Shown: positions 1 through 42,788 of the stretch, in pieces
Numbering within the stretch: position 1 is the first letter of the stretch
How the letters are laid out: each line of letters begins with the position of its first letter
DNA from: an uncultured Spirochaetota bacterium
GTDB taxonomy: Bacteria > Spirochaetota > UBA4802 > UBA5550
Direction of reading: 5' to 3'
NCBI GenBank assembly: GCA_963827275.1
Contig: CAWHAA010000006.1
Span: forward strand, 64,001-128,000
DNA length: 64,000 nucleotides
The notes under the pieces: generated by a model
Seen by the model: only the letters and a program-made list of their open reading frames with translations
Told to the model about the DNA's origin: nothing
The model's database searches: none
Position numbers and translations under genes: made by a program

Positions 1-537
1 GGCAATCTTGAAATAGTTAAATTATTAATTATGAATAAAGCAATAATTGATACTGAAACTGATGATAGAGGAACCTTAAATAATGCAATATGGGTGGGTA
101 ATAAAAAAATAATTCAATATTTAATCAGTAAAGGAATTTATATAAATATAAGTTGTTCAAGTAGTTTAATATTTTCTGCATTATCTTCTGTTTCATTTGA
201 AATGTTAAGATTTGTTGTTGATGATTTAGGCGTATGTATTGATTCGAAAGATTATTTCTATGGGGATACACCTCTATATAAAAATATTTATGATGAACGT
301 ATACAAGAAGCAGCCTATTTAATAAAGAAAGGCGCAAATATTAATGCCCAAAACAAGAAAAAGCAAACACCCTTGCATGAGGCTGTAATATCCGGTAAAA
401 CCAAAATGATCGAGCTGCTATTAAAAAACGGCGCAGACGTCCATATCAAAGACGAAAAAGGTCTATCGCCGCTTGATTACGCAAAGAAAGAGAACAACCC
501 CCGGGTGCTGGCGTTATTGAAACGATATGGCAAATAA
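1..537 (+). CDS. Ankyrin-repeat protein, 5'-truncated by the window edge (array member 1)
   Basis: Frame is open from base 1 (GNLEIVKLLIM...). Ankyrin motifs GDTPLY and QTPLHEA...LLKNGADV; paralogous to the next two genes. Confidence 0.9.
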   Translation, partial: GNLEIVKLLIMNKAIIDTETDDRGTLNNAIWVGNKKIIQYLISKGIYINISCSSSLIFSALSSVSFEMLRFVVDDLGVCIDSKDYFYGDTPLYKNIYDERIQEAAYLIKKGANINAQNKKKQTPLHEAVISGKTKMIELLLKNGADVHIKDEKGLSPLDYAKKENNPRVLALLKRYGK

Positions 538-605
538 TGTGAAATTGTTCCAAGCTTTTCTAATGAAAAAAATCGCCTGTCTTCTGATTTTTATCGGTAT
601 CTTTA
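475..605 (+). repeat. 131-bp direct repeat, copy 1 (3' end of ankyrin gene plus downstream intergenic DNA)
   Basis: Identical by eye to 1319-1449 (offset 844). Confidence 0.9.
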
Positions 606-631
606 AAATCATACAACCGGGATAGAAAGTA

Positions 632-1381
632 ATGAAAACATTGATAATAATCATTTTTTTGAGTTTTACCTGCGGCTGCTCTAAAAATTATGTCATTGAT
701 AATAAAGGTGATGATTTATATTCTGCAGCAAAAATAGGTAATTATAAAAAAGTTCAATTATTGATAAATAATGGTGCAGATGTTAACTATAGAAAACAAC
801 TTTTATCAAATGATGATTACCCATTAAATGCGGCAATATATAGTGGAAATATTGAGATTGTAAAATTATTGATCATGAGTGGTGCAAAAATAGATACTGA
901 AAAAGAAAATAGATTTTGCTTAAGCGATGCCATTTATAAAGAAAATAAAGTGATTATACGGTATTTATTATCAAAAGGTATACATGTCGATAAAAGTTGT
1001 TCAAGCTCATTAATTTTTTCTGCGATGTATTCACGCTCTTTTGATATGATGAAATATGTAATTGAAGATCTTCATGTTTGTATTGATTCAAGAGAAACAC
1101 ATTACCAACATACCCCACTGTATAAAACCGTCTGCGAGGATCTTTATCAAGAGGCTCAGTATTTAATAAAAAGGGGTGCGAATGTAAATATACCAAACAA
1201 GGATAATGAAACTCCATTGCATGTTGCTGTAACGTGGAAAAGGTTTAAGTTCATTGAACTTTTGCTAAAAAACGGCGCCGATCCAACCACCAAGGATGCT
1301 AAGGGCCTAACTCCCCTGGATTACGCAAAGAAAGAGAACAACCCCCGGGTGCTGGCGTTATTGAAACGATATGGCAAATAA
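632..1381 (+). CDS. Ankyrin-repeat lipoprotein (array member 2, 249 aa)
   Basis: Signal peptide with lipobox-like FTCGC; multiple ankyrin repeats. Confidence 0.9.
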   Translation: MKTLIIIIFLSFTCGCSKNYVIDNKGDDLYSAAKIGNYKKVQLLINNGADVNYRKQLLSNDDYPLNAAIYSGNIEIVKLLIMSGAKIDTEKENRFCLSDAIYKENKVIIRYLLSKGIHVDKSCSSSLIFSAMYSRSFDMMKYVIEDLHVCIDSRETHYQHTPLYKTVCEDLYQEAQYLIKRGANVNIPNKDNETPLHVAVTWKRFKFIELLLKNGADPTTKDAKGLTPLDYAKKENNPRVLALLKRYGK

Positions 1382-1449
1382 TGTGAAATTGTTCCAAGCT
1401 TTTCTAATGAAAAAAATCGCCTGTCTTCTGATTTTTATCGGTATCTTTA
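1319..1449 (+). repeat. 131-bp direct repeat, copy 2
   Basis: Identical to 475-605. Confidence 0.9.
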
Positions 1450-2110
1450 TAATCATAAAACCGGATATCTGCAAAGCATATGCCGGGAGTCCGCGTGGGT
1501 GGTATCTTTCTCCCGAGTTGGTTTAATAATTGGTTGCGTGGTTTCTAATATTTATAGAATTGCTATTAAAATTATAAAGCAGGCTAATAGACAATGTATC
1601 GCTTGATGATGACATTATTTATAATTTTCATATCTAATTGCACAACAACAGCTATTTCTGCTGATAAAGATGAATTGCTGTACCAGGCAGCAAGAAAAGG
1701 TGATCCCTATAGAGTGCAAGAATTAATTAATCAAGGAGCCGACGTTAATTACAAAAAACAATTCCTGTCGCATGACGAATATCCGCTGAATGGGGCCATA
1801 AAAAGCGGCAAAATTGAGATCGTCATGGTGCTCATTGCTAATGGCGCAAAAATAGACACGGAGAATGATGACAGGAATATTTTAAGTGATGCGATTTATC
1901 ATAAACATAAGAACATTATGCACTATCTGATTAGCAAGGGGAATTATGTTGAAAGAAGCTGTAAGAGTCAGCTGATATTTACCGCGATATATTCTCGCTC
2001 AATTGAAATGCTGAAATTCGTTGTTCAAGATCTCGGCGTCTGTATCGATTCAAAACAGTTGCATTACGAAACTACTCCACTATTTGAAACAATCTGCGAA
2101 GAGCTTTATC

Positions 2111-3279
2111 TGTAAAACTCTGAACTTCATCTGACACTCACCAATCACTTCCAAACTGCCTGTCAGTTAAAGTTTAGCAGTTTTTCTTTTGCAAGCACTA
2201 ACGAATCCTTGAACGTATCTATCGGTGTTTTGCCATAACAATATTTTCCACTATGCGGTCTCTCATTATTATATTGAACAATCCATATGTCAAGATCCTT
2301 CTGAAGTTCATCAAGAGTGTTGTAAATTTTCTTTCTAAATGCTATGCGATAAAATTCATCTTGAATGGTTCGATGAAATCTTTCGCATATTCCATTTGTT
2401 TGAGGATGCCGCGTCTTTGTCTTTGTGTGCTCAATATCCTCAATCGAAAGAAACAGTTCATAGTCATGACTTTCCATTTTCCCGCAATATTCGGTACCAC
2501 GATCCGTCAATACTCGGATCAGCTTAATGCTGCTGTTTTCATAAAACGGTATAACCCTGTCGTTCAATATGTTGGCAGAGGTAATTGGTGTTTTCATATT
2601 GTATAACTTTGCAAAAGCCACCTTACAATACGTGTCTATAAAAGTCTGCTGGTATATCCGGCCAACACCTTTGACCGTTCCTACATACATTGTGTCCTGC
2701 GAACCCAGATAACCAGGATGTTCAGATACAATCTCACCATGAGCTTCCTTTTCCTCTTTGGCTTTCTCTAATGCGGCAAGCTGTGATTCCGTGAGAATGA
2801 TTCCATCTTGAGCGACCTTGGCCTCAAGTGCCTTGAGCCGCTTCTTCATGGTTTCAAGATCATTACGGAGCCATATGCTTCTTACTCCGGTAGGTGAGAC
2901 AAATATCCCCTGTTTTCTCAGTTCATTAGAAGCCCGAACCTGTCCAAATGCGGGATACTCAATTGCAATGCTGTTAACTGCAGTTTCAACACTTGGATCA
3001 ACACGATTCTTTATATTAGCTTTTTTTCTGCTGATTTCTTTTAACGCTTCTTCACCACCAGTATCATAAAGTTCCTTTAGCCGGTAGTAACTGTCTCGGG
3101 AATATCCCATAATGTGACATGCTTTTTTGACATTCCCAATCTGCTCTGCGAGGTTTAATAACCCCATTTTGTTCCTGATGACTTTCTGTTCTGTTGTCAT
3201 GTACTCCTCCGTATAATTATTCAGAGCATTTTCTGCTCCATTTATCGGAAGAGTGTCAGATTAAATCGAGTCTATTACA
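2111..3279 (-). mobile_element. IS481-family insertion sequence (1169 bp)
   Basis: 5'-TGT...ACA-3' ends; imperfect 29-bp terminal IRs (TGTAA...ATCTGACACTC); 7-bp direct repeat CTTTATC at 2104-2110 and 3280-3286. Confidence 0.93.
2163..3200 (-). CDS. IS481-family DDE transposase
   Basis: N-terminal HTH plus rve core (SQDT, LTDRGTEY, PQTNGICERFHRT, YNNERPHSG); GGAGGAG RBS. Confidence 0.95.
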   Translation of the reverse strand: MTTEQKVIRNKMGLLNLAEQIGNVKKACHIMGYSRDSYYRLKELYDTGGEEALKEISRKKANIKNRVDPSVETAVNSIAIEYPAFGQVRASNELRKQGIFVSPTGVRSIWLRNDLETMKKRLKALEAKVAQDGIILTESQLAALEKAKEEKEAHGEIVSEHPGYLGSQDTMYVGTVKGVGRIYQQTFIDTYCKVAFAKLYNMKTPITSANILNDRVIPFYENSSIKLIRVLTDRGTEYCGKMESHDYELFLSIEDIEHTKTKTRHPQTNGICERFHRTIQDEFYRIAFRKKIYNTLDELQKDLDIWIVQYNNERPHSGKYCYGKTPIDTFKDSLVLAKEKLLNFN

Positions 3280-9701: not shown

Positions 9702-10322
9702 ATGGAGAGATACATGAAAGGCGATTTACGGAAAAACCAGATCCTCGACTGCTCAAAAAAAATATTCTCAGAAAAGGGATATTACGAGACCTACGTAGAA
9801 GAGGTGATCAAGGAGGCAAAAGTCGGGAAAGGGACTTTTTACCGCTATTTCAAGAACAAGGAAGACCTCTTCATATCCCTCCTCATTAAATTCCTCAACG
9901 AATGGGAGGAATTCGCCTCTATCGAATTGTCTGAATTCAAGTCGGACAACATCGAGGAGTTGTTCAGATTGCTCATCAGGAAGAGCTTCAAATTTTTCAA
10001 GGAAAATGAAGAGCTCTGCAACATATACCTCCGGATAGGGCCCGGCCTGAACAACATCTTCGAGCCGTACCTGATGCAGTTTGAGCGAAAGATGCTGAAT
10101 TACATAATCCTGTACATGGAGGAAGGGGTAACGCTCGGAACGATCAGGCAGGACCTGAATATCGAGCTTGCGGCCAATATCGTGGCGGGGGCCTTTCTCA
10201 GGGTCGACTACTATTATTTTATCCTCAAAAAGAACAGCGGCCCGGGGGACATGGATATCGAGAAAATGTCCGAAACATTTTATCAGATTATAATGCACGG
10301 CATCATGGGGCAGCGCGGGTAA
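9702..10322 (+). CDS. TetR/AcrR-family transcriptional regulator
   Basis: N-terminal HTH FSEKGY...KGTFYRYFKNKEDL. Confidence 0.95.
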   Translation: MERYMKGDLRKNQILDCSKKIFSEKGYYETYVEEVIKEAKVGKGTFYRYFKNKEDLFISLLIKFLNEWEEFASIELSEFKSDNIEELFRLLIRKSFKFFKENEELCNIYLRIGPGLNNIFEPYLMQFERKMLNYIILYMEEGVTLGTIRQDLNIELAANIVAGAFLRVDYYYFILKKNSGPGDMDIEKMSETFYQIIMHGIMGQRG

Positions 10323-10325
10323 AAA

Positions 10326-10353
10326 ATCGGGGCAGGCGGCAGCCTGCCCCGAT
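10326..10353. terminator. Hairpin terminator between convergent genes
   Basis: ATCGGGGCAGGC-GGCA-GCCTGCCCCGAT preceded by an A-tract (U-tract on the minus strand). Confidence 0.8.
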
Positions 10354-10381: not shown

Positions 10382-12004
10382 TCATTTCCCCGGCAGCGGG
10401 TCCTTCGTCGCAAGCTTCGACGGCATGAATATCCCGATTACGCCATTGATTCCCACGCTCATCACTATGTTGAAAAAGAACGCGGCAAAACCGAGGAAGA
10501 GGAGCGACCCGGCGAGCGCGGCGAGCACCATGTAGGGCAGGAACTCTCCTTCAAAGTAGATCGTGCGCCGGAGCATCCCCTGCAGGCCGGCCATGCCCAT
10601 GAACGCGCCCATGCCGATGCCGCCCAGCAGGTGGGCCCAGAAATGGAAGATCGCGAGCTTCTCGCTGTAGAGCTTCGCCCCGTTCGTCAGGATCGGGAAA
10701 AGAAAATAGATCGCCGAGTAGAGCGTCATGGTAAGCCCGACCAGTATCGCGACGTGGACGTGGGGACCGACGATCCACTGGGTGTTGTGCAGAATCCTGT
10801 TCAGGCCCAGGTCCGCCTGTATGATGCCGGCCGGCACCGCCAGGGCGAACCCGAGCAGGCCGCCCAGCAGGAACCTGAGCGGGTTGGTCATCTTGAGCGG
10901 GCGGGCGCTCCAGAGGGTCACCAGTGTTATGAAGAAGGCCAGGCCCTGGGTGATCAGCTCGAACGCGGTGACCATCTCGCCCGATACGATCTTGAGGATC
11001 CCGGGCTGGGCCTGGTCGGACATCAGGTGGTGCGACCATACGGTCCAGGAGACCACGAGCTCGACAAAGAGGGCCGCGCGCGCTATGTTTTCCATGAAGA
11101 GCTTCTTCCCCGTGATCAGGGTGGCGAGGAGGTACCATGTCCCGGCCACGTAGATGAGCACCAGCCCGTCGGCGATGAGGTCAAGCCCCCACCAGAACCA
11201 GTTTTTATAGAGCAGCGCGTCAACGGCGGAATGCTTCAGGTCAAAGCCGAGGATCGCGGCGATCATGTACACGAGGATCAGCACGCCGGTGAACAGGATA
11301 ACGCCGGAGTTGAGCGCCGTGTCGATGGTGCCGCGGGCGATCGCCGCTACCGGCAGGGACACCAGGTGCTCTTTCTTGTTTTTAGAGAAAAGGTTCCTGA
11401 AACCGCTCAGTCCAAGCGCTGACGCGATGAGCGCGCCGGTCGGCTGTTTGGGCTTTCCCTCGGGGGTATAGCCTATGGTCGCGAAGATGTTTATGACGAA
11501 GAAGACCGTGCCCAGCATGATCAGCGCGATGCCGACGATGAAAAAGGTGCCGCCCCATACGCTGAACTGGGTGAAATCCGCGGGAAGGGGCCAGTACAGG
11601 GTGTACAACGGCGCGTAATGGGTGATGAAGCCCGCGAGCCAGAAGGTGAGGGTGCCGAACCCGACGAGGGCGCAGGTCCAGTTCGCGAGCTTGATGCTCC
11701 AGAGCGGCTTTTTCATTAAAAACGGCACCAGGAAGAGAAAGGCGCCGAATACGATCGAATAGGTGGAGCCGAATATCCCGACGAGCGGGTGCGCCGTCAG
11801 CATCCCGTAATACTGCTCGGGAGGTATGAGGTCGACCGCCGGCTTGACGAGGTAGAGCCTCATGAGCATGCCTTCGATCAGCGCGAAGCCGTAATAGACC
11901 AGCCCCACAACAACGAACCGCAATGTCATTTTCTGCATGGGGGTCAGGGAGACTGATTTGAACAGGCCCTGTTCGCCATTGATGAGTGTTTTAATAAAGT
12001 TCAT
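10382..12004 (-). CDS. Heme-copper oxidase superfamily subunit I with a non-canonical active site (gNOR-like nitric oxide reductase candidate)
   Basis: Highly hydrophobic; TAHP, YTLYWPL, WSHHL and PHVH retained; helix VI reads WFWWGLDLIADG with no His or Tyr. Confidence 0.8.
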   Translation of the reverse strand: MNFIKTLINGEQGLFKSVSLTPMQKMTLRFVVVGLVYYGFALIEGMLMRLYLVKPAVDLIPPEQYYGMLTAHPLVGIFGSTYSIVFGAFLFLVPFLMKKPLWSIKLANWTCALVGFGTLTFWLAGFITHYAPLYTLYWPLPADFTQFSVWGGTFFIVGIALIMLGTVFFVINIFATIGYTPEGKPKQPTGALIASALGLSGFRNLFSKNKKEHLVSLPVAAIARGTIDTALNSGVILFTGVLILVYMIAAILGFDLKHSAVDALLYKNWFWWGLDLIADGLVLIYVAGTWYLLATLITGKKLFMENIARAALFVELVVSWTVWSHHLMSDQAQPGILKIVSGEMVTAFELITQGLAFFITLVTLWSARPLKMTNPLRFLLGGLLGFALAVPAGIIQADLGLNRILHNTQWIVGPHVHVAILVGLTMTLYSAIYFLFPILTNGAKLYSEKLAIFHFWAHLLGGIGMGAFMGMAGLQGMLRRTIYFEGEFLPYMVLAALAGSLLFLGFAAFFFNIVMSVGINGVIGIFMPSKLATKDPLPGK

Positions 12005-12679: not shown

Positions 12680-12693
12680 TTGATCCAGGTCAA
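12680..12693 (-). promoter_or_regulatory. CRP/FNR-family (FNR/DNR/HcpR-like) binding box
   Basis: TTGATCCAGGTCAA matches TTGAT-N4-ATCAA with one mismatch, 79 bp upstream of subunit II. Confidence 0.6.
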
Positions 12694-13000: not shown

Positions 13001-16000
13001 TCAGCGCTTCTTCGGTTTTTTCCTGCCTCCCGGGTAGTCCCCTGGTTTGGGTTTCCGGGGCGGATTTATGGTGATCCGGGCAGGCTCTCCCTCATAGACC
13101 TCGTCCGTCTCTTCGATAACGCCGGCGCCGTTGTCCTCCAGTTCCAACTTGTAATCGGGCCTGAACTTGCTCTCTATCCATTCCCGGAAGATGTCGATAT
13201 ATTCGAATACTGCCGGCACCACGATCAGGGTCAGGAAGGTCGAGAGGATCAGGCCGCCCATTATGGCGATACCCATGGCCATGCGGAATTTTGAGACCTC
13301 GCCGATGCCCAGGGCAATCGGCAGGGTGCCGGCCAGCATGGCAAACGTGGTCATCAGGATAGGCCGGAGCCGGATCATGCCCGCCTTGTAGATGGCCTCC
13401 TTCCGTGTCAGGCCTGAACGGAACCCTTCGAGGGCGAAGTCCACAAGGAGGATCGAGTTCTTCGTGACCAGGCCCATGAGCATGATAATGCCGATCATGG
13501 AGAACATGTTCAGCTGCTCGCCGAACATGAAAAGGGCCAGGAGCGCGCCGGAGAGCGCCGGCGGCAGGGCAATGAGGATCGTCACCGGGGTAATGAAAGA
13601 CTCATACAGGCTTGAGAGGATAAAATATATGAATATGACCGCCAGCAGCATGGCGAGCAGAATGTCTTCCATAAGCTCCTTCAGGTCCTCGGCCTGCCCG
13701 ATAAAGCCGTACGTTATTCCTTTCGGGGGCGGCATTTTTTTCGTGAGCAGCTCCATCGAATAATCCGTCGCGCTGCCCATGGCGCCGTCGGGTGTAAGGT
13801 TCGCGGTGATCTGCACGACCCGGGAACGGTCACTCCTGAGGATCTGCGAGGGGCCAAATTTGTCCACGCCTTTGCTGAGGGCTTTAAGCGGCACCATGCG
13901 GTACATCTGGTTCGGGACCCTGGTATTTTCGAAGGCGGACCTTAGATCACGCTGGTCCGGCTTCAGGCGGATGCGGACGTCATACTCGATGCCGTTATCG
14001 TGCAGCTCGCCGACCACTTCGCCGGCTATCTGGTAGCGGAGCTCTGCGCCTGCTATGGACGGCATGACGCCGAATTTCTGCATTTCGTTCGGGTTGAACA
14101 CCACCTGGAATTCGGGCTTGCCTGCCTCGGAGCTGATGTCGATGTCTGAGAGGTCTGGGCTTTTTTTCAGTTCCGTGAAGAGCTTCTGCGCGTACTCGTT
14201 AAGAACTTCCAGGTCATTGCCGATTATGTTCAGGACATAGGCCGACATCGCCATGTTCCCCAGGCTGTACTCGGTGAGCTTCGGACGGTCATTGGGGAAT
14301 TCCTTCAGGAGCGTGTTCCTGATCGCGGTCTTTATGTCCGGCGCGGAGCGCTCGCGGTCATCAATGTCGACCAGGGAAAGGCCCATGGTGACGCTGTTGG
14401 GCTGCTGCCGTGTTCATCGCGTTCATGCCGACGATAATGGACATCGTGTTCACTTCGGGGGCAACGGCCAGTATCCGTTTTGCCGCCCTGTTCGCAACCT
14501 CATTGGTGCCGTCCAGGCTCGTGCCGGACGGCATCTGCAGCGATATGTTGAAGTCACCGAAATCGCTCGAGGACATGAAGTTCTTCTTGATAAAGGGCGC
14601 TGTCGCGAGGCTGCCGACAAATATGATGGTGGTGATGCCCGATAATGATGAAGCGGGTGGTCCAGGGTGAAGGTCATGATCCTGCCGTACCAGCGTTCCA
14701 TCCATTCCTGGAACCGTTCGAAGTTTCGAATGACCACGTTCTGGGCGACCTGGCCCGGTGCCGGCAAAGTAGGCGGAAAGGAAAGGGCGCGACCGTGAGG
14801 GCGTCAAAGAGGCTGATGGACATGGCGAAGACAATGGTGAAGCCGAACTGCTTGAAGAACTGGCCGACTATGCCGCCCAGGAAGCCGATCGGGACGAAGA
14901 CGGCCATGATGGTGAGGGTCGTGGCGATGACCGCCAGCATGACCTCCGTGGTGCCCTTTTCAGCGGCCTCGGCCGGCAGCATGCCCGACTTCGAGCTTTC
15001 TGAATATATTTTCCCGCACAACGATCGCGTCATCCACGAGGAGGCCGACCGTCAGCGACAGGGCCAGCAGGGTGATGACGTTGATGGTGTAGCCCATGAC
15101 GTACATGAGTATGAAGGCGCCCAGGAGGCTGTTCGGGAGCGCGATACCGGTGATGAAGGTGCTTCTGAGGTTTCCCAGGAACAGGTAAACGACGATGATG
15201 GCCAGGGCGATCCCGAGCAGGATGGTGACTTTCACCTCGTCAAGGTTCATGCGGACGATCTTTGCCCCGTCATAGATGAGGTTGAGCTTCGGCTTTCCGG
15301 CGCGGTCTTTCATGTCGGCGTTCATCTTGCCGATTCGCTCGACCACTCCATCGAGAACGGCTACCGTGTTGGCCCCCGACTGCCGGTACACTTCGAGGAA
15401 AAGCGCGGGCTTCATTTCACGCTTGATCGTTTTCTTCTTTTTGCTGAAGAAGCCGGATTTTTCGTTCGTGCCGCCGTTGACCGGCGCGTACAGATAGCCG
15501 TACGGTCGTTCTTTCCTCGGATCCGTCGCTGACGGTGCCGAGGGACTTGACCGAGATGGCGTTCCCGATGTCACCGGAAAACTGTACCACGGCATTGGCT
15601 ATCTGGTTGACGTCCGTGAATTGCGCCACGGTCCTGAAGGTGGTTTCTTTATCGGCCTTGTCATGCTTGCCCACGGGTATGTTCATCCCCGCGCTCTTGA
15701 TGGCGTTCGCGACGGCCAGGGCGGATACCTTGTGCTCGTTCAGCTTGTTGCGGTCGAGCTCTACCTGTATCTCGCGCCGGCGTCCGCCGACGATCTTGAC
15801 CTGCGCGACGCCGTTGACCTGCTGTAATCCGATCGTGATCTCTTCCTTTGCCAGGTCGTACATGTCATTCGTAGAGAGGTCGGCTGAAAGTGCGATCCGC
15901 GCGATCGACATGCTTGTGGGGTCGAACCGTATCACGAGCGGCTCTTCGATGTCCTCCGGAAGGTCCCTTCGTATCAGGTCAACCTTGTCCTTGACCTGCT

Positions 16001-16317
16001 GTTCCGCGTATTTCGGGTCGACGTCAAGGTTGAATTCAGCGATGACCAGGGACACGCTGTCCATGTTCCTCGACGACAAATGCTTCAGGCCGGCATATGG
16101 AGCTCACCTGGTCCTCTATCGGTTTTGAGATGAGGTTCTCGATCTCTTCAGGGGATGAACCGACGTAGACTGTCTGCACCACGACATAGGGGAATTCAAC
16201 GTCCGGGAACATGTCAATGCCGAGCCGGCTCATTGCGATTAAACCGACAAAGAGCAGGATGAAGACGATACTGGTAATTAATATAGGGCGCTTGATTGCG
16301 AGTCGTGCTATGTTCAT
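13001..16317 (-). pseudogene. RND (AcrB/AcrD/AcrF-family) efflux permease split by several +1 insertions (true pseudogene or sequencing errors)
   Basis: Consecutive fragments MNIARLAIKRP..., GLLVDDAIVVREN, FFKQFGFTIVFA, KNSILLVDF...RLRPILMTT in shifting frames. Confidence 0.85.
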
Positions 16318-24165: not shown

Positions 24166-27100
24166 TTATTCCGACCGCTTTTTCCTGTAGTAGGCGGGTG
24201 ATATCTTCATTATCTCGCGGAAGGCCTTGTTGAAGGTCCTGAGGCTCCCGAAGCCGACGGAGAAGGCGATGTCGATTATCTTGTCGTCCGTCTCCTGGAG
24301 CTTCCGGGCCGCCTCGTTGATGCGGAGCTCGTTAATGTAATCGTTCATCTTCTTCCCGTGGTACAGCTTGAAATACCTCCCCAGGTTGTCGTGGTGCAGG
24401 CCGATATGCGATGCGAGACCCTCGCGTGAGATTTCGTACGCGTAGTTTTCATGGATGTACTCTATCGCCTTCTGTATCTTTTCGCTTATCATGGGCGACT
24501 GCACCGGCTTTTTCTCCGGCTGCCGGGGGGCCTGGCTTTTACGGCTGAGGGAATCGATCTCGGTCGCGAACGCGACATGCGCGAGGAAGGTAAGGAGCAG
24601 GTCCGCCTCCTTCTCGGTGAATATCCCGCTGGTGAGCGAATTGTCAAGGTAGCAGACGCCGATGGACCTGTCGCGCTCGTTTATCGGGACGCAGAGGATT
24701 GACTTCGGGTTCACGCGCGCGTTATCGTAGCCCGCGATGTCCGGGTGCTCCCTGGCGTCCTTCATGATGATCTGTTCCTGCGTGACATAGACTTCGCGCA
24801 TCATGTTGAGGACATACTGGTCGATCGCCATGTCGTAGCCAAGGGTGGAAAAAACGGCCTTCTTTTCGAGCTCGTCCTTCTCGTTCGCGATATAGATGCA
24901 CCCGCGCTGGGCGCCGGTGATCTCGACCGCCTTGAACAGGATGCGCTCCATGAGCTGTTCCGTATCGGATATCTGGCTGATGTCCCGCGCGAGCTGTATG
25001 ATTGACGAGAGCCGCTCGTTGTCGACCCGGCGCTCGAGCGAGGAGGGCTCGCCGCTCTCCCCGGTGATGCCGAGCAGCCCCTTCAGCTCGCTGATGCGGC
25101 GCTCGGCGCCGATAGTGGTGAAGATGCGGTACGCCATCTCCAGCATGTTCTTTGCGACGATCCCGGCATCAGTCTGCGACAGGTAGAGCCCGTATTCATA
25201 GTAGCTGCGGCCGACGCAGAAGCGCCGCTCTATCTTCTTGTTGTGGTCGATGCTCGCCCGGAAGAGCCTGTCGGCCCGTTTTTTTCTGCCGGTCACCGCG
25301 CAGTATTTCGCGTTTACCAGCAGGGCCATGCCGTAATAGCTGGTCCAGCGCCTGGTCGCCGCGAGCGACTTCGCGCAGAAGGCGCCCGCTTTCGCGAGGG
25401 CCTGCTTTTTCCCCGCCTTGTCCATGTCGGGAGCGATGAGATATTCGGCCAGGTACGCTTCCGCCAGCCAGGAGTAAAGGTGGACCGTGTAGTGCTTTAA
25501 AAAGTTATTTCCCCTGAAAATAGCGAGCGCTTCTTCGAGCAGTTCAATCGAGCGGCGGGTGTCCCGTTTCTCGAGGTAGACCCTGCCGAGCTCGATGCAG
25601 GACAGGCAGTGGGTAAACTGTATCCGGGCGTCCTTGCTGTAGTTGTACGCGGCGAGGCCGAGCGATTCTGCGGTCTCGATGTCGCCCGTTTCAAGAAAAT
25701 AGGGAGTGCTCAGAATCCATGCCATGCTGATGCCGAAAAAGTCGCTGGTCTCGCTGGTGATGGTGAAATACTGGTCAAGATGCTGGCTGACCGACTTGTA
25801 GTCGCCGATAAGCTGGTAATCATGGATGAGGCTCGCGCACGAGTTGCCGGTCTCGAAGATATCGCCCATGTTTTTAAACCGCCGGGAGGATTCCTCGAAA
25901 CAGTCGATGCTCTTGCGGTACCTGCCGCTCCACTGGTAGCAATAGCCGAGCCACTGGTATGACTGTGCCGCCCCCCACTGGTCGTTCAGGGATTCCCGCA
26001 TCGCGAGCGCGTTGCGGTGGTAGCGCTCCGACAGCTTGAAACGGGTCATGGCCATGAATATGTTTGCCAGGCCCCCCGTCGCCATGCCGAGCTCGGGTGA
26101 TTTGCCGATCTTGCTGATCGCGACGTTATGCGCCCGGAGCGTGAACCTGGCGAACTTCAGGGTGTTCGAGTAGAGGTATGTCCTGAGCAGGGGCAGCGAG
26201 AATTTCGCCCGGAGCTTGTTGTTCTCAACGGTCTTTTCCTTGCGGAAGCGGATAAGCACGCCGGGAAGCAGCAGGTTGATGGACAGGAGGAGAATCTCCT
26301 TGACGATGGTCAGGATGATGAGCCTCCTGTTGTCGGTGAAGCGCTCTCCCAGGAGCTTTCCCGCCTTTATCGCGTATTCCTCGCACTGTTCCCAGTCGCC
26401 CTTCCTGAAGTATGCCGCCGAGATGTTGCTGTAGACGTCGGCCTGTTTGTTCGTGTTGTTCATGAGGGGCGCCGCCTTGAGCAGCATCTGGATCGCCTCG
26501 TCGTACTTGCCGACCGTCATGTATATCTGGCTGATGTTGACGGCGATCCGTGTCCACTGGGGGGTCTTGGCGAGGCCCGTCTCCTCGAGTATTTTAAGCG
26601 TCAGCATGAAATACTTGAGGGCGTCTTCATTGGCATATCGCGCCATGGCCATGACGCCGGCCGGGTAGGTGAAGATAATAGCGCGTTCCGTGTCGCCGCC
26701 TTCTATGAAATGGTGCGCCAGGTCGAAAATAACCGGCGAAAGGTCGTCCTTGTTGTTTATCTCGATCGCGTCCGCAATCGCCAGGTGGAGCTTTTTCCTC
26801 TTGTCCTTGCGGATATTGCTGTAAAAGGCCTCCTTGATCCGGTCATGAGCGAACCCGATCTCCCCCCATGTCGGGAGGTCCACCAGGAGCTGGAGGTCGA
26901 TCGCCTTGTCTATGATGCGGACGATCTCGGTGCGGTCGAGGTCGCTCATCTTGAAGAGCAGCTGCATGTTGAATTTTTCGCCCATTACCGCGGCGCCGGA
27001 CAGGATGTCCTTCTCGTTCTTGTTCAGCCTGTTGATGCGCTTCAGGATCACATCGACGCTCGATGCCGATATCTCGACGGAGCCCAGCTTCGATTCGTCG

Positions 27101-28839
27101 AAGCGCCAGCGGTTCTTCTTGTAGACGAGCACCGCGTCTTCAATGAGCTGTTTCAGTATCTCGATGGCGAAGAAGGGATTGCCGCCGCTCTTCTGGAAAA
27201 TGAACTGGGAAATGCCGGCGGTCTGCTCTTCCGGCTCCAGGAGCAGGCCGGCGACGAACCGGTTCATGGTCGGTGCGTCGAACTGCTCCAGGTGTATGCG
27301 GGTGAGTGGGGCTTCCCTGGCCGCGATCTCGATATGGAGCTTTTCCAGGCCGTGGTCGTCGGTTATCTCGTCGTCGCGGTATACGCCGATGATGACAAGG
27401 GGATGGCGGGAAATGTCGTTCAGCAGCTCTGCAACGATGTTGAGGGTGCCCTCATCAGTCCACTGGAGGTTCTCAAGTACGATGACCAGGCCGCCGACCA
27501 GGTCGCTCAGTTTCAGCAGGAACTGGCTGATGATCATGTGGAAGCGCTTGTATTCCCGCTCCGGCTCAAGCGCCACCAGGGGCGGGGATTCGCCCATCAG
27601 CTCCGCCAGGGCGGGGTTGAGCTTGATGATAAGCTCCCCGAGGTTGTGGAACTCGTCCCTGATTGCTATCATAATGCTTTCCCTCTGGGACGGGGAGAGG
27701 TTATGGAAATTCGTCATGAAGGAGTCGAGCGCTTCCTGGAACGGCTTGTTGGGCACCTTGTTGCTCTGGATGGAGCATTTCCCCTCCACCAGGAGGCCGC
27801 CGGTCGCGTAAACGGAGCTTTTCAGCTCCTCGATCAGCCGCGTTTTGCCCGATCCGCCGCTGCCGGTGATGAAATAGACGGCGCCTGAACGTTCGCGCAG
27901 GCGGTCTATCACCGCGAGGAGCTGCCCCATCTCGCGTTCTCTGCCGATCAGCTTCGTACGGTAGCTGAGCTTCGTGAAGCGGTCATCGAGTCCGAGAATG
28001 AATTCCTGCTGCCCGGACAGGTACCGCTCCAGGTCGGCAAGAAGGCCGCGGGCGCTCTGGTACCTGTTCTCGGGCTCCTTCTCGAGGAGCTTCAGGACGA
28101 TGCGGTCCAGTATCGGAGGGGTGTCGGGGTTCAGTATGCTGGGCATCTCGGGGACCATGGCGATATGCTGGTGTATTATCGAGCAGATGTCGGGGCCCTC
28201 GAACGGCGCCATTCCGGTCAGGAGCTCGAAAAACAGGACGCCGAGTGAATAGAGGTCGCTCCGCTCGTCGATGTTCCGCTTCAGTATGCCGCACTGCTCC
28301 GGGGAGATGTACGCGAAGTTCCAGACGATCTCTTCGAAGGAGAGCGTGTCGCTGAAATCGCGCAGGTGCGAGAGGCCGAAACCGGTGATCTTCACCGTTT
28401 CGTTGTCGATCAGTATGTTCGCCGGCTTCAGGTCGCGGTGGATCAGGTTGCCCGCGTGCAGGGCCTCCAGCCCCCTGCATATCTGGATGACGATGTCGAC
28501 CGTCTGGCGCACTGAAAGGTATTTCTCGTTGATGATGTCCTGCAGGCTGGTGCCGGGGAAGTATTCCGTGGCCACGTAGAGCAGCTCGATGAATTCCCCC
28601 ACCTCGACGATCTTGATGATGTTCGGGTGGTCGATCTCGGAAACGGCGTTCGCCTCGATCCTGAAGCGGATGATGTCCTCTATCCGCTTGGATATGACGC
28701 TGTTCTTGAGAAATTTGAATATGTACCGCTGCTTCCCCTGTGTCAGGTCATGGGCAAGGTGCATGTGGCTGATGGCGTCCTCGCCAATGAGCCCTTCGAT
28801 CTGGTACCTGTTATGGACTATTTTGCCGTTTATTTCCAT
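24166..28839 (-). CDS. Multidomain regulator: Ser/Thr kinase-like, AAA/STAND ATPase, TPR, GAF, AraC HTH
   Basis: HRDLKPAN, YISPEQ, DLYSLG; GSGGSGKT; GGNPFF; TPR-like helices; SILCVP...YLDN GAF; IAFSVGFGSLRTFNKAF AraC. Start placed at MEING. Confidence 0.9.
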   Translation of the reverse strand: MEINGKIVHNRYQIEGLIGEDAISHMHLAHDLTQGKQRYIFKFLKNSVISKRIEDIIRFRIEANAVSEIDHPNIIKIVEVGEFIELLYVATEYFPGTSLQDIINEKYLSVRQTVDIVIQICRGLEALHAGNLIHRDLKPANILIDNETVKITGFGLSHLRDFSDTLSFEEIVWNFAYISPEQCGILKRNIDERSDLYSLGVLFFELLTGMAPFEGPDICSIIHQHIAMVPEMPSILNPDTPPILDRIVLKLLEKEPENRYQSARGLLADLERYLSGQQEFILGLDDRFTKLSYRTKLIGREREMGQLLAVIDRLRERSGAVYFITGSGGSGKTRLIEELKSSVYATGGLLVEGKCSIQSNKVPNKPFQEALDSFMTNFHNLSPSQRESIMIAIRDEFHNLGELIIKLNPALAELMGESPPLVALEPEREYKRFHMIISQFLLKLSDLVGGLVIVLENLQWTDEGTLNIVAELLNDISRHPLVIIGVYRDDEITDDHGLEKLHIEIAAREAPLTRIHLEQFDAPTMNRFVAGLLLEPEEQTAGISQFIFQKSGGNPFFAIEILKQLIEDAVLVYKKNRWRFDESKLGSVEISASSVDVILKRINRLNKNEKDILSGAAVMGEKFNMQLLFKMSDLDRTEIVRIIDKAIDLQLLVDLPTWGEIGFAHDRIKEAFYSNIRKDKRKKLHLAIADAIEINNKDDLSPVIFDLAHHFIEGGDTERAIIFTYPAGVMAMARYANEDALKYFMLTLKILEETGLAKTPQWTRIAVNISQIYMTVGKYDEAIQMLLKAAPLMNNTNKQADVYSNISAAYFRKGDWEQCEEYAIKAGKLLGERFTDNRRLIILTIVKEILLLSINLLLPGVLIRFRKEKTVENNKLRAKFSLPLLRTYLYSNTLKFARFTLRAHNVAISKIGKSPELGMATGGLANIFMAMTRFKLSERYHRNALAMRESLNDQWGAAQSYQWLGYCYQWSGRYRKSIDCFEESSRRFKNMGDIFETGNSCASLIHDYQLIGDYKSVSQHLDQYFTITSETSDFFGISMAWILSTPYFLETGDIETAESLGLAAYNYSKDARIQFTHCLSCIELGRVYLEKRDTRRSIELLEEALAIFRGNNFLKHYTVHLYSWLAEAYLAEYLIAPDMDKAGKKQALAKAGAFCAKSLAATRRWTSYYGMALLVNAKYCAVTGRKKRADRLFRASIDHNKKIERRFCVGRSYYEYGLYLSQTDAGIVAKNMLEMAYRIFTTIGAERRISELKGLLGITGESGEPSSLERRVDNERLSSIIQLARDISQISDTEQLMERILFKAVEITGAQRGCIYIANEKDELEKKAVFSTLGYDMAIDQYVLNMMREVYVTQEQIIMKDAREHPDIAGYDNARVNPKSILCVPINERDRSIGVCYLDNSLTSGIFTEKEADLLLTFLAHVAFATEIDSLSRKSQAPRQPEKKPVQSPMISEKIQKAIEYIHENYAYEISREGLASHIGLHHDNLGRYFKLYHGKKMNDYINELRINEAARKLQETDDKIIDIAFSVGFGSLRTFNKAFREIMKISPAYYRKKRSE

Positions 28840-28987
28840 CTGCGCTGTTTGTCGTCCTGGATAACTGGCGGTGCCGCTTCCCCTGTGCGCCAATAGTATA
28901 TATATACCATGCAAAATCGGTCAATCAGATTATCTGCGTAAATAATTTTTCGTTCTGGCGCCGTGTCAAGTTCGCGGGCGCGGGCGG

Positions 28988-36102: not shown

Positions 36103-37452
36103 TTACTTTGCGCGGAGCATCTTCTGCGCGGCGGCGTTTACCGGGTCCCATACCGGGGAGAAGGGGGGCGCGTAGCCGAGGTCAAGATACGCGACGTTTT
36201 CCACTTTCATCTTTGCCGCTACTGCCGCTGCGACCGTGTTGATGCGCAGCGCGGCGCCGTCAGTGCCGGCGATCTCGCCGCCGATAAGCTCCCGCGAGTG
36301 CGAGTTGATGGTAAGGGACACGCTGATCCTGCCTGACGCGGGGTAGTATCCCGCCTTCGACCGCCACAGTACCGAGGACGATTCGGAAGGGATGCCGGCG
36401 CGCCACGCGTCAGCCTCGTTCAGCCCTGTTTTCCCCACCTCGAGGTCGAACACCTTCACCATCTGCGAGCCTACGATCCCGGGAAAGGCCTCGTCTTCCA
36501 CCCCGGCCGCCTGGAGCCCCGCGACGCGTCCCTGCTTGTTCGCCGTGGTGCCCAGCGGCATGTAGGCGTTTTCACCGGTCACGAGGTGCTTCACCGTTGC
36601 GCAGTCGCCTGCGGCGTAGACATCCGGCCGGCTGGTGCGCGATTTCTCATCGACGATGATCGCGCCCCGGTCGTTCATCTGTATGCCGGCCCCCTTGAGG
36701 AACGCGGTGTTAGGCGCGATACCAGTGGAGACGATGACGAGGTTGGCCTCGTAGCGCTCCCCGCTCGCGCTAACGGCGAGGCCCGCCGCCGAATGCGTTA
36801 TCCCTGATATGTCGGCGCCGGTCACCACGGCGACATCATTGACGCGGAGCGTCTCGGATATGATGCTCCGGATCACCGGGGAGAGGGGCATGGCCACAGA
36901 CTCGAATTTCTCAAGTATGACCGTTTCAATTGAGCGCTTCCTGAATGCCTCGGCCATTTCGAGACCGATGAAGCCGCCGCCGATGATGATGCCTCTCCGG
37001 GGGGAGCGTTCGTCGATGTATTTTTTTATCGCGATCCCGTCTGACAGGGCCCGCAGGAAAAATATATTCGGTGAATCGATACCGTCGATGGGGGGGGCTA
37101 CCGGGCGGGCGCCGGTCGCGATGACAAGCTTCCGGTACGCGAGGGTCTCGGTTCCTGCCGCGGAGGCTACCGAGACAGTCCGGGCGTCGCAATCGACGGC
37201 GGTCGCTTCTGTATTCAGGCGTATCTCTATATTACGGTCGTTAATATATTCGTCGATATCGATCGCGATAAGGTTTTCCGGCGTTTTGACATCATCGCCG
37301 ATATAGTAGGGCATACCGCAGGCGGCGTATGAAACGTGCGCGCTTTTTTCGAGCACGGCGATTGACAGGGCTTCGGAGGTCCTGCGCGCCTGTGATGCCG
37401 CGCTCATCCCCGCAGCATCACCGCCGATGACGAGAATATCATATTTCTTCAT
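36103..37452 (-). CDS. CoA-disulfide reductase / NADH oxidase family flavoprotein
   Basis: GGDAAG, SYAACGMPY, GGGFIG, YAPPFS; no rhodanese domain. Confidence 0.9.
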   Translation of the reverse strand: MKKYDILVIGGDAAGMSAASQARRTSEALSIAVLEKSAHVSYAACGMPYYIGDDVKTPENLIAIDIDEYINDRNIEIRLNTEATAVDCDARTVSVASAAGTETLAYRKLVIATGARPVAPPIDGIDSPNIFFLRALSDGIAIKKYIDERSPRRGIIIGGGFIGLEMAEAFRKRSIETVILEKFESVAMPLSPVIRSIISETLRVNDVAVVTGADISGITHSAAGLAVSASGERYEANLVIVSTGIAPNTAFLKGAGIQMNDRGAIIVDEKSRTSRPDVYAAGDCATVKHLVTGENAYMPLGTTANKQGRVAGLQAAGVEDEAFPGIVGSQMVKVFDLEVGKTGLNEADAWRAGIPSESSSVLWRSKAGYYPASGRISVSLTINSHSRELIGGEIAGTDGAALRINTVAAAVAAKMKVENVAYLDLGYAPPFSPVWDPVNAAAQKMLRAK

Positions 37453-37574
37453 AGTGGGCCTCCGGCAATGAACACGTTGGTTGTCATGGATCGCATAATC
37501 GTGTCAAAAGTCGCAAAAAACGATGAATAAGTCAATAAAAATTAAAGAAAAATCTAAAATACTTAATGCCTTGC

Positions 37575-37603
37575 TTGACGGAGTACCTATTGTTAAGTAT
37601 ATT
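37575..37603 (+). promoter_or_regulatory. Sigma70-type promoter of the HesB-like gene
   Basis: TTGACG-N17-TATATT. Confidence 0.65.
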
Positions 37604-37632
37604 CTAAATAAATAATATACCGTCAGGAGGAG

Positions 37633-37938
37633 ATGGTGAAAATAGAAATTACGAAAACAGCCCAGGACAAGCTGGGGAAAGTCTTTGCCGAGTCAAAATT
37701 GAAACTCCCGGCCCTCAGGGTTACGTTTGCTGGATTTGGTTGAGGAGGGCCCCGTCTGGGACTGGCTCTGGATGAGCTGGAAGAGACCACAGATACCATC
37801 GTTGAAACCGGCGGGTTCAAGGTGCTCGTAGACGAGAAGGTAAAGCACCATCTCGAGAGCATCCCGGAAACCACCGTGGATTATATCGAGTCGCGGTATG
37901 GTGCGGGCTTTGTCATACAGGGAGGTTCTACCTGTTAA
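37633..37938 (+). CDS. HesB/IscA-like selenoprotein (Sec at codon 37, TGA 37741-37743), 101 aa
   Basis: AGGAGG RBS; MVKIEIT...LRVTFAGFG-U-GGPRLGLALDE...VDYI...GF...C*; hairpin directly 3' of the TGA; terminator downstream. Confidence 0.88.
37746..37769 (+). promoter_or_regulatory. Putative bacterial SECIS hairpin
   Basis: AGGGCC pairs with GGCUCU; inner CC-GUCU-GG stem-loop immediately after the UGA. Confidence 0.6.
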
Positions 37939-37974
37939 GGCCCGCAATTCTTCAATGATAACGCATAAAAATAT

Positions 37975-38006
37975 AAAAAAGGGGCTGTCAATCGACAGCC
38001 CCTTTT
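37975..38006. terminator. Bidirectional terminator
   Basis: AAAAAA-GGGGCTGTC-AATC-GACAGCCCC-TTTT. Confidence 0.9.
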
Positions 38007-38030
38007 GATTTTCACAACGCGGTCGCTGCA

Positions 38031-38606
38031 TTAAAAATTATCATCCAGAAGCTCAAAGTACGGCTGCGCATGCAGGCAGGCCGGACAGGCGTCCGGTGCG
38101 CTTTCGCCGTCATGGACATACCCGCAGTTCCTGCATTTCCACTTCGTCTTCTCTTTTTTCTTGAAAACGGTGCCGTCCTTGATGTTTTTCAGCAGCGCAA
38201 GATAACGCTGCTCATGGTGCTTCTCGACCTCTGCAATCCTCCGCCAGCAGATGGCGATGTCCTTGAACCCCTCCTGCTCGGCGATGTCCGCGAAGGCCGG
38301 ATAGAGCTTGGTATGCTCCTCGTTTTCACCCATGGCCGCCGCCTTGAGGTTGTCTGCCGTGGAGCCGATGACCCCTGCGGGATAGGCGGCCGTTATCTCC
38401 ACGTCCCCGCCCTCGAGGAACTTGAAGAAGCGTTTCGCGTGCTCCTTCTCATTGTCAGCCGTCTCGAGGAATATCGCCGCTATCTGCTCGTACCCGTCCT
38501 TTTTCGCCTGCGAAGCGAAATAGGTATATCGGGTCCGCGCCTGTGATTCACCGGCGAACGAGGCCAGCAGGTTTTTTTCAGTCTTGGTGCCTTTGATGCT
38601 CTTCAT
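38031..38606 (-). CDS. rbr: Rubrerythrin
   Basis: FAGESQA, EKEHA, EKHHE; C-terminal CRNCG...CPAC. Confidence 0.97.
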
Positions 38607-38638
38607 TAAAATCTCCTTGTAATGATATTCTTGTTATA

Positions 38639-39160
38639 CTATACGGCAAGCCCGGTATAGAGGGCCATGTTCAGCGCGCGCTGGGCGAGCTCACGGTCCT
38701 TCATAAGCATGCCGTTGCCGTCGTCTTTTATAAGCTTGAGCTCGTCCAGGATCTCCAGCGCCGATGCCTCTTCCTCGACCTGCTCTGCCACGAACCACTG
38801 GAGCATCTGGTTGGATGCGTGGTCCTTCTCGGCGATGGACAGATCGACCAGGCCGTTTATCAGGCCCGTGACCTTCTGCTCGTGCCTGTAAACCTCTTCG
38901 AATACATGTTCCGGCGACTTCCAGTCGGTCGGCGGCCCGTCGATGGGTTTCAGCATCACTTTGCCGCCCCTGTCGAACAGGTACTGGTAGAATTTCCTCG
39001 AGTGGGCGAATTCCTCGGCGGCCTGCACCTCCATCCAGTGCGCGAAGCCCTTGAGCCCCTTGTTCTGGAAGTAGGACATCATCGACAGGTACAGGTAGCC
39101 GGAATACTGTTCGGCGTTGATCTGGCTGTTTATTGCCTCTTCGACTTTCTTGTTTATCAT
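38639..39160 (-). CDS. ftnA: Non-heme ferritin
   Basis: QINAE.YS.YLYLSM, EE..H, HE..VT, QWFVAEQVEEE. Confidence 0.95.
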   Translation of the reverse strand: MINKKVEEAINSQINAEQYSGYLYLSMMSYFQNKGLKGFAHWMEVQAAEEFAHSRKFYQYLFDRGGKVMLKPIDGPPTDWKSPEHVFEEVYRHEQKVTGLINGLVDLSIAEKDHASNQMLQWFVAEQVEEEASALEILDELKLIKDDGNGMLMKDRELAQRALNMALYTGLAV

Positions 39161-39177
39161 GCGTCACTCTCCCGTGC

Positions 39178-39555
39178 TCACTTTTTCCATAATCCGTGGA
39201 TGTTGCAGTATTCCCGTACCGTGGCCTTTTCATCGACGCAGCAGAACTCGGCTTCCGGCGCCTGTCCGGGCTTCAGGAACTTCCGGTTTGACGTCCCGTC
39301 GGCGGCGATCACCTGGATCCACTCGATGTAGTGCTTCTCTTCCATGGGGTGGGCTACAGACCCGATTTTAGCCAGGATACCGTTGCCAGACTTGCTTACA
39401 TCCGGCACGTGCTTCTCCTTGGCTGCGTCAACGGTGTTTTCTGTTATAAGGGTCATGTCCTGGCCGCAGCAGACCAGCGTGCCGGCGCCCTCATGCAGCA
39501 CCTCGACGATGTTCCCGCATACCTGGCATTTGTACACTTGCAGTCTTGTTGTCAT
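39178..39555 (-). CDS. dfx: Desulfoferrodoxin (2Fe superoxide reductase)
   Basis: CQVCGN...CCG; EKHVP; HPM..KHYIEWI; CNIHG. Confidence 0.96.
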
Positions 39556-39616
39556 GTTGATTCCTCCATTGATTGTGTTTATTGCGGGGCTGTCCCGGAG
39601 GGCAGGCCCGCTGCAT

Positions 39617-40621
39617 CTACAGCTTCACTCTCCCCCTGAAGATGCGATAGGAATATATGGTATATCCGACCACGACCGGCATCCCGATAAGGGCAATGAT
39701 GAGCATGACGGTCAGGGTCAGCTGGCTTGACGATGAATTGTATATTGTTATACCCAGTTCCGTCCCCTGGGTTGCGCGGACCAGGGCGGGAAACTGGAGC
39801 GATCCGGCAATGCCCCAGAGCGAGGCAAAAAACAGGGATGACGCGGCAAAGGTCCTTCCGTCGCTATCGCGCCCGATCAGCGCCCTGTACGCGATGAGTG
39901 AGACAATCGCTACCGCTGCGCAGGCCCAGGCAATGGCGTTTTCCATGCTGCCCGGCAGGTAGACGGCCGAGAGGATGAGTGTGACCGGGAAGATCACGGC
40001 GGCGAAAAGCCATGCCTTTTTGGCGACGCTCTTTGCCCTCTCCTTCAGCGCGTCCCCGGTCTTGAGCGCCGCGTAGGCGCACCCCTGGAGAAGGATCGCC
40101 GACAGGCCGAGAAGGCCGATGGCGACCGGGAAGGGGCGCAGCAGGGTGAAGAAGCTGCCGGTGAACTCCATACCTTCGTCCAGCGGAATGCCGAGGATAA
40201 CATTGCCCAGGGCCACGCCGAAGAGGAGCGAGGGGAGGGCGCTGCCGGCGGTGAAGGTCCATTTCCAGAGCCCGCGGCGTTTTTCGTCGAGGGACCAGAA
40301 TTCAAGCGATACCGCCCGCAGTATGAGCGCGAAGAGAACGAGCATCAGGGCGAGGTAAAACCCGCTGAAGACCGTGGCGTAGGCGTGGGGAAAGGCCGCG
40401 AAGAGGGCGCCGCCCCCCGTCAGGAGCCAGACCTCGTTGCCGTCCCATACCGGGCCGATCGCGGTGAACAGTGACGCCAGATCCTTCCTGTCGCGGGCCA
40501 GGACGGGGAGGAGAGTCCCGATACCGAGGTCAAAGCCGTCCAGGAGGGAATAGCCGATGAAAAGTACGCCGATGAGAAAAAACCAGGTGATCTGTAGCAT
40601 CTGTAATGTTTCCATGCTCAT
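39617..40621 (-). CDS. cydB: Cytochrome bd oxidase subunit II
   Basis: [26 protein letters not shown] overlap with the cydA stop. Confidence 0.95.
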
Positions 40622-41949: not shown

Positions 41950-42000
41950 ACTAACGACCTCCCGTGCTGATGATGATGACGGTATCTGCCGTCATGTTCC

Positions 42001-42165
42001 TCAGTCTTCGTAGGGCTCGAACTGGTCCTTGGCAACGCCGCACTGGGGACAGACCCAGTCAGCCGGAAGTTTTTCGAACGGCGTGCCCGGCTTGATGCCC
42101 GAATCGGGATCGCCGACTTCAGGATCGTATACGTAGCCGCATACCGAACATACATATTTTTTCAT
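42001..42165 (-). CDS. rub: Rubredoxin
   Basis: [15 protein letters not shown]...WVCPQCG; GGAGG RBS. Confidence 0.97.
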
Positions 42166-42202
42166 GTCTGATTCCTCCACTATCTGGTTTGTATAATCTA
42201 AC

Positions 42203-42221
42203 AATTGTAATAGTTACAAAT
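42203..42221. promoter_or_regulatory. PerR/Fur-type operator upstream of the rubredoxin-cydAB-dfx-ftn-rbr run
   Basis: Palindrome TTGTAA-TAG-TTACAA in an AT-rich promoter region, next to a PerR-like gene. Confidence 0.6.
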
Positions 42222-42314
42222 TAATATACGGTTGATTATTTTGCAATAAGAAAAATATTTTTTATGATGCTGTGCTGAAAAACCGACGCACGCCGGTCAG
42301 TGATGGCGCGCGGT

Positions 42315-42734: not shown

Positions 42735-42788
42735 GGTTATACGTCCATTTCGAGATGTGCGCATGCCGTTACGGCAGATCTGGCACGG

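Follow-up and report, generated by a model that had tools for sequence, protein, structure and literature searches.

Among the described families of heme-copper oxidases, gNOR is the only one to have lost an active-site His (PMC11214002). In the account of the family given there, Asp stands in place of this His, the active-site Tyr is missing, the partner is a cupredoxin subunit devoid of CuA, and some residues might bind quinol; the same account marks gNOR as uncharacterised, a predicted family present in 156 GTDB genomes, and cites a 2-His-1-carboxylate iron mimic that reduces NO. Table A4 of PMC8756737 lists D at the Tyr position of gNOR. The family is already counted in surveys of N2O sources. 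A second described system is the HcpR regulon of Geobacter and Desulfuromonas, whose site is wyTTGACnnnnGTCAArw and whose members include hcp, ferredoxin, nrfHA and hemerythrin genes; norB is an HcpR target in one cyanobacterium, according to the same source (PMC1274295, as excerpted).

An earlier note on the window, i.e. the whole 64,000-nucleotide stretch of DNA analysed here, had singled out a gNOR-like subunit I in what it took for a probable spirochaete. By the published description of this never-purified family, the gene and its upstream neighbour, which form a two-gene operon, are a member of gNOR (norGH). The nearest named homologues of subunit I are from Spirochaetota, in keeping with the proposed host.

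Active site of subunit I and layout of the operon

Subunit I matches Pfam COX1 (E 1e-52) and scores far under every NCBIfam oxidase cut-off. The TAHP (H72), WSHH (H325/H326) and PHVH (H415/H417) motifs are kept, as had been reported, with the gene on the minus strand, and helix VI reads NWFWWGLDLIADGLV from N268 to V282 (Table 1). We aligned the protein with E. coli CyoB (bo3), the cNOR and cbb3 of S. meliloti (both unannotated ORFs, named here from their motifs), C. necator qNOR and a haloarchaeal ba3-like enzyme. The column of D275 holds H284 in bo3, H186 in cNOR and H487 in qNOR, i.e. the CuB/FeB His, and that of D279 holds Y288, E190 and E491, respectively, i.e. the cross-link Tyr or the FeB Glu. 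The exchange of the CuB His for Asp, on which the earlier note had built its case, is thereby confirmed by alignment, and the Asp at the Tyr position adds to it. A different register of helix VI, offered by HMMER, was rejected: the gap-free alignment and the outgroup protein P0224, which reads WWGLH...N and anchors the register, place D275 in the His column.

No Tyr occurs within residues 292-428 of subunit I, the column of the cbb3 helix-VII Tyr is occupied by S319, and Y285, considered as a relocated cross-link Tyr, was rejected, its position being F118/W75/Y59 among 252 homologues. The reference alignment thus relocates neither the His nor a cross-linking Tyr to helix VI or VII, and the claim that the active-site Tyr is absent stands, as does the claim that this is not a cytochrome c oxidase in spite of its COX1-type labels. 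D275, D279, E349 and five His are unchanged in all 252 full-length homologues, which range from 41 to 100% identity across phyla (only proteins of 480-600 aa were kept, no fragments; 128 share less than 70% identity), so the substitutions are not error or chance. Other genes of the assembly seem frameshifted, as would suit an oxidase gene in decay or an artefact of sequencing, but with an intact ORF and substitutions invariant across phyla the chance of either is negligible. Further invariant polar residues are Y291, which aligns with the K-channel Tyr of ba3, T346, T352, K267 and N268. That D275, D279 and E349 belong to the site is predicted from their placement in the alignment.

Subunit II, overlooked in the earlier note, is encoded 48 bp upstream of subunit I, and the two are partners in 76 of the 80 loci compared. 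In it, Ser replaces both CuA Cys and neither His remains; none of 77 homologues carries CxExC, and all 77 carry STEYSG. The TetR gene on the other side (9702-10322) was rejected as part of the unit, being convergent to subunit I and not conserved beside homologues. Elsewhere in the window, three ankyrin-repeat-like ORFs (31-3200) were named by eye, and so were an integrase-core transposase-like ORF directly after the third of them (2163-3200, minus strand) and a 1582-aa fusion (24166-28914) of Ser/Thr kinase, ATPase, TPR and GAF with a C-terminal AraC-type HTH. An AcrB-family gene (13001-16317) appears split over several frames, possibly through an assembly error.

Table 1. Features of the gNOR-type operon and its promoter region (positions in the window)
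Feature	Position	Strand	Remark
gNOR-type subunit I (NorG-like), 540 aa	10382..12004	minus	11 hydrophobic segments by simple scan
Subunit II (NorH-like), 182 aa	12053..12601	minus	two membrane helices and a cupredoxin domain; weak CoxB match
E44	11873..11875	minus	aligned with quinol-site Asp75 of bo3; E44 in 250/252 homologues
H72	11789..11791	minus	= bo3 H106, low-spin heme ligand, by motif and alignment
Helix VI motif, N268 to V282	11159..11203	minus	
Helix VI D275-x3-D279	11168..11182	minus	predicted non-heme metal ligands; in place of oxidase H-x3-Y or cNOR/qNOR H-x3-E
H325/H326	11027..11032	minus	helix VII metal ligands, by motif and reference alignment
E349	10958..10960	minus	helix VIII; column of E259 (S. 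meliloti cNOR) and E560 (C. necator qNOR); Ile in bo3 and ba3-like
H415/H417	10754..10762	minus	= bo3 H419/H421, high-spin and low-spin heme ligands, by alignment
Terminator-like hairpin, 12-bp stem	10326..10353	minus	3' of subunit I, between subunit I and TetR gene
Palindromic box, HcpR-type consensus	12680..12693	.	identical copy upstream of nrfHA, source genome (G000) C5:113683
Candidate -10 hexamer TATAAA	12652..12657	minus	22 nt after box
Alternative promoter TTGACT-17-TATATT	12698-12670	minus	overlaps box

Family assignment and predicted electron donor

As in gNOR, the locus has Asp at the positions of both the His and the Tyr, lacks a cross-link Tyr and encodes a CuA-less cupredoxin subunit II in a two-gene operon, and it is placed away from the C family, cNOR and qNOR (PMC11214002; PMC8756737 Table A4; PMC8906906, in the portions accessible). 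The term gNOR-like used in the earlier note is therefore apt: the His-to-Asp change and the missing Tyr agree with the first of these sources, and the Asp at the Tyr position with the second. Two differences from gNOR as published should be mentioned: (i) a His-to-Glu heme ligand appears in the accessible part of 10.1101/592808, whereas all 252 homologues compared here keep the three heme His; the description of gNOR in PMC11214002, as far as available, has no such change; (ii) the published context of gNOR, in the excerpts at hand, is denitrification and sulfidic habitats, in contrast to the non-denitrifying nitrite ammonifiers and the HcpR-type box found here.

The other families fit less well. 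Neither the three CuB His and cross-linked Tyr of the A, B and C family O2 reductases, nor their CuA or cytochrome c donor subunit, nor the full quinol site of bo3/aa3-600, was found in the locus. With cNOR (NorBC) and qNOR it shares the acidic residue at the Tyr position, the helix VIII Glu column (by sequence alignment), a helix VI free of gaps after the acidic residue and, as predicted here, FeB and b-type hemes. However, those enzymes retain the helix-VI His (H-x3-E, giving three His and a Glu as FeB ligands, against D-x3-D here), have a cytochrome c subunit or fused domain and form a separate branch (100/98), so that the likeness is probably convergent. In two trees the eight family members form one clade (100/100), apart from the C family, cNOR and qNOR and on the A/B side; long branches are flagged in both, two partial rows were omitted from both and two more long rows from the second, and the trees fix neither the sister group nor a B-family origin of the clade. 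Two odd heme-copper proteins fall near gNOR in one tree (94/95, on long branches): P0224 (472 aa), with H-x3-N in helix VI and Tyr in the high-spin heme His column, and P0235 (462 aa), with Arg in the CuB-His column and Gln in the first helix-VII His column.

None of the six reference gNOR accessions of Dataset S4 (PMC11214002) is among the 30 homologue clusters looked up. GNOR=1 is entered for 3 of the 15 Melioribacteraceae rows and 3 of the 10 CAIVAT01 rows accessible in Dataset S6 of that paper, and 80-83% identical homologues occur in Stygiobacter/Melioribacter records and in a CAIVAT01 assembly, which are not paired one to one with the assemblies of the dataset. The first 30 of its 206 Spirochaetota rows have no GNOR entry. 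The second Asp, E349 or the Spirochaetota members may already figure elsewhere in PMC11214002. The plasmid records listed, 60 of 126, all stay under 27% identity and include no gNOR, and the literature matches listed, in a search that hardly extends to subscription journals, contain no biochemical work on any gNOR.

As regards the electron donor, the CuA-less subunit II with Ser for Cys and the acidic helix I quinol-site residue recall bo3 of E. coli and aa3-600 of B. subtilis, and the top PDB matches of the family profile are these two quinol oxidases. Both also have features that were not found here: three CuB His and the cross-linked Tyr in the active site, subunits III/IV, and a synthase for heme O/A. 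The quinol site is partial: besides E44, Q64 aligns with bo3 His98 (position 64 is Q120/H80/L22/V21 among the 252 homologues), and bo3 R71 and Q101 are replaced by F40 and G67. The UbiA-family genes of the source genome are one for a MenA-like prenyltransferase, below the MenA cut-offs, and one weak match; there is no match for CyoE or heme O synthase, and the hemes are therefore presumed to be b-type. The loss of CuA, the quinol-oxidase PDB matches, E44 on the quinol Asp, the MenA-like gene and NrfH lead us to infer a menaquinol donor.

These matches, the oxidase label given to subunit I by databases and its status as sole heme-copper enzyme of the genome could also speak for a quinol oxidase that scavenges O2 and operates without the cross-linked Tyr. 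We regard this as very unlikely: the CuB His and Tyr are both Asp, the helix-VII Tyr is absent as well, and cytochrome bd, whose gene cluster has no copy of the box described below, is available for O2.

Promoter box and genomic setting

The operon is preceded by a palindromic box, TTGATCCAGGTCAA. This 14-mer occurs exactly twice in the source genome (G000, 4.13 Mb, 92% complete), with its second copy in the gap that separates a ferredoxin-YgbA operon from nrfHA. The wider pattern, TTGAY-N4-RTCAA, is found at 16 sites of the genome, or about 0.001 per 300 bp. gNOR is carried by 9 of 122 genomes of the class, one of them (a 3' fragment) outside the box count, and a perfect copy of the wider pattern lies upstream of the operon in all 8 carriers examined; five of these belong to a single genus, so the counts are not independent, and the loci L001 and L003, duplicates of two others, were counted once. 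The distance to subunit II is at most 300 bp in the seven carriers with a parsed start, and in G095 the box lies 714 bp before subunit I. The genes flanking the operon differ in most of the six carriers compared. The same box is found upstream of nrfHA in all five genomes checked (six have nrfA) and upstream of hcp in G095. What supports the box is its conserved position only: it is not over-represented genome-wide (16 sites at spacer 4 vs 10-56 at other spacers), and within the window by itself the four matches to the strict FNR consensus are not significant, 9 of 100 shuffles reaching as many.

Five of the 16 sites in the source genome precede evident nitrite/NO/heme genes, and the other 11 have no obvious fit. 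These five are the sites at gNOR, nrfHA/ferredoxin(-YgbA), DUF438-hemerythrin-PAS, hemerythrin and hemC/hemB (the last two targets named by eye, the hemD and hemL-like neighbours by Pfam). At each of them a TA-initiated hexamer follows 22 nt past the box, a gap that we take to be the spacing of class II activation; a sigma-70 consensus overlaps the box, which may serve repression instead of activation. Box and neighbours agree with the HcpR consensus and with the regulon content, i.e. hcp, nrfHA and ferredoxin, given in the available part of PMC1274295: the box TTGACnnnnGTCAA is common to both, and so are the hcp, ferredoxin, nrfHA and hemerythrin members. The present case differs in its host, of a Spirochaetota-like class, in the lack of an hcp match in the source genome and in that gNOR is not named in the regulon as given in that source.

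The sole Crp/Fnr protein over cut-off in the source genome is encoded in the nrfHA cluster (C5:121556-122455). It has a PETLSR helix and no Cys, which makes a role as Fe-S oxygen sensor unlikely, and we infer it to be a candidate HcpR-type activator acting at the box; the HcpR of P. gingivalis senses NO via heme (PMC12750200, as excerpted). The box, being FNR-like, could signal anoxia instead. It is absent, with up to one mismatch allowed, from the cydAB/rubrerythrin/ferritin O2-defence cluster of the window. This cluster (36103-46120) includes cydAB (39617-41949), a multiheme protein (44267-45586) and, by eye, rubrerythrin-, ferritin-, NADH-oxidase-, Bcp- and flavodiiron-like ORFs, the last of which (42904-43953) stops early, possibly by a frameshift. 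The nrfHA region is a nitrite/NO island (C5:111602-122455) in which YgbA, glutamine amidotransferase and ferredoxin genes are divergent from nrfHA, followed by genes for DUF438-hemerythrin-PAS, a metallo-beta-lactamase and the Crp/Fnr protein, with no sign of hcp. Among the literature matches listed, in a search largely short of subscription journals, none links gNOR or norGH with HcpR or Rrf2.

The source organism looks anaerobic, as had been supposed, from a CooS-like gene, TGA-containing molybdopterin enzymes and gNOR as its only heme-copper enzyme. The CooS-like gene (C5:351608-353305) has a break similar to that of the AcrB-family gene, possibly an assembly error too. The statement that the window has no other denitrification gene can be extended to the whole genome, which does, however, carry nrfHA for nitrite ammonification (NrfH over cut-off; NrfA at 408 bits in Pfam but below the equivalog cut-offs of NCBIfam). 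Cytochrome bd is present too, as is a flavodiiron protein that exceeds the cut-off for NO reductases; hcp has no match, a prismane match having been rejected as CooS-like. In the nine carriers nirK, nosZ, napA and narG are nowhere over cut-off and no credible nirS was found: cytochrome d1 matches in G062 and G071 were rejected as short weak repeats (E ~1e-5 to 1e-3), and all NapA-model matches as far below cut-off. The presence of nrfA is not enriched among gNOR carriers (6 of 9 vs 77 of 122 genomes of the class), and exclusion between gNOR and hcp is weak and confounded by genus (2 of 9 vs 54 of 122).

These data also bear on a respiratory role, in which the enzyme would conserve energy by reducing NO from neighbours or chemodenitrification, as a module of denitrification at the level of the community. 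Such a role would accord with the treatment of gNOR as a denitrification enzyme in the available text of PMC11214002 and with the three of nine carriers that lack an nrfA match, and the invariant Y291, T346, T352, K267 and N268 could make a proton path. We nevertheless hold it unlikely, if worth keeping in mind: the box is also found at hcp, hemerythrin and DUF438 stress genes, none of the nine carriers has an NO-forming or N2O-consuming enzyme over cut-off, the channel residues of gNOR do not map to the B-family channel in the part of 10.1101/2021.10.15.464467 at hand, and gNOR is termed non-electrogenic in PMC8906906, likewise available in part.

In other phyla the regulatory setting varies. 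A three-Cys Rrf2 gene lies directly upstream of the gNOR operon in 46 of 74 loci (L002, L009, L020, L024, L033, L036, L040, L042 and L069 among the Rrf2-type loci). A candidate operator, ATGMTAC-N6-GTAKCAT, was matched, with at most two mismatches, in the 700 bp that precede subunit II at 31 of the 44 loci where this gene is adjacent and at 0 of the 28 where it is not, the pattern having been derived from the same loci on which it was scored. In a third arrangement (L023:4488-5399), a perfect HcpR2-type box, GTAAC-N4-GTTAC, stands before the operon, with a divergent gene for an 8-Cys Crp/Fnr protein. Crp, DUF438, Ric, qNOR, DUF6448, DUF1858, cupin or DUF2871 genes, which we take to be of nitrosative-stress type, neighbour 23 of 80 gNOR loci. 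In 9-12 of 80 loci (L005, L031, L039, L054 and others), mostly of Bacteroidales, gNOR has YeeE/YedE sulfur-transport and rhodanese genes in its vicinity, and these may bear on the reported link between gNOR and sulfidic habitats.

Proposed function and its significance

The reading that we favour, and consider fairly probable from the sequence evidence, is that the gNOR-type enzyme draws on menaquinol to reduce NO to N2O, is induced through an HcpR-type regulator and removes the NO that arises in ammonification by NrfHA. Menaquinol would be oxidised near E44/Q64, and a low-spin heme b (H72/H417) would hand the electrons on to a centre made up of a high-spin heme b3 (H415) and a non-heme FeB, the latter held by H325, H326, D275 and probably D279. 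E349 would act as a second-sphere proton donor as in cNOR and qNOR, the reaction would be 2 NO + 2 e- + 2 H+ -> N2O + H2O, and no copper would be needed. Nitrite or NO would induce the operon via the HcpR-type regulator, with the Cys-free Crp/Fnr protein as activator, and the NO removed would be that formed in nitrite ammonification or arriving from outside. A box common to gNOR and nrfHA suggests the removal of toxic NO, not denitrification. Points against this reading are the flavodiiron NO reductase already in the genome, the carriers devoid of nrfA and the partial quinol site.

The regulon indicates nitrite/NO stress and does not name the substrate. Within the same stress regulon, the carboxylate-rich site could instead perform other nitrogen-oxide chemistry, on nitrite, hydroxylamine or nitrosothiol, or by NO dismutation; two Asp and a Glu are unlike the one-carboxylate mimic, and gNOR is the only family described without an active-site His (PMC11214002, in the text available). 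Against this, the protein retains its heme ligands, both helix-VII His and the Glu at the NOR position, and the related eNOR and bNOR reduce NO according to the same text. We think such chemistry quite unlikely; and it is just as doubtful, on the residues predicted, that gNOR is a copper-free heme/iron enzyme (2 His, 2 Asp and Glu) used by anaerobes in the HcpR nitrosative-stress regulon for a reaction not known from any heme-copper protein, such as one on nitrite, hydroxylamine or nitrosothiols, other than 2 NO to N2O. If the reaction were other than NO coupling, gNOR genomes counted as partial denitrifiers would be misassigned.

Returning to NO removal during ammonification, the subunit I/II pair is an ordinary member of the known gNOR family, and the addition made here is that its regulon speaks for a role in NO detoxification outside denitrification. 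In genomes devoid of denitrification genes, the box ties gNOR to hcp as well as nrfHA, evidence that is independent of the active site, and it suggests an inducing condition, nitrite or NO. The two-gene operon is compact, apparently needs neither heme A nor copper-assembly genes, and would lend itself in practice to the first purification of a His-deficient heme-copper site. If the proposed role is true, the N2O produced by gNOR in such anaerobes would be a result of NO detoxification during nitrite ammonification, and not of denitrification.
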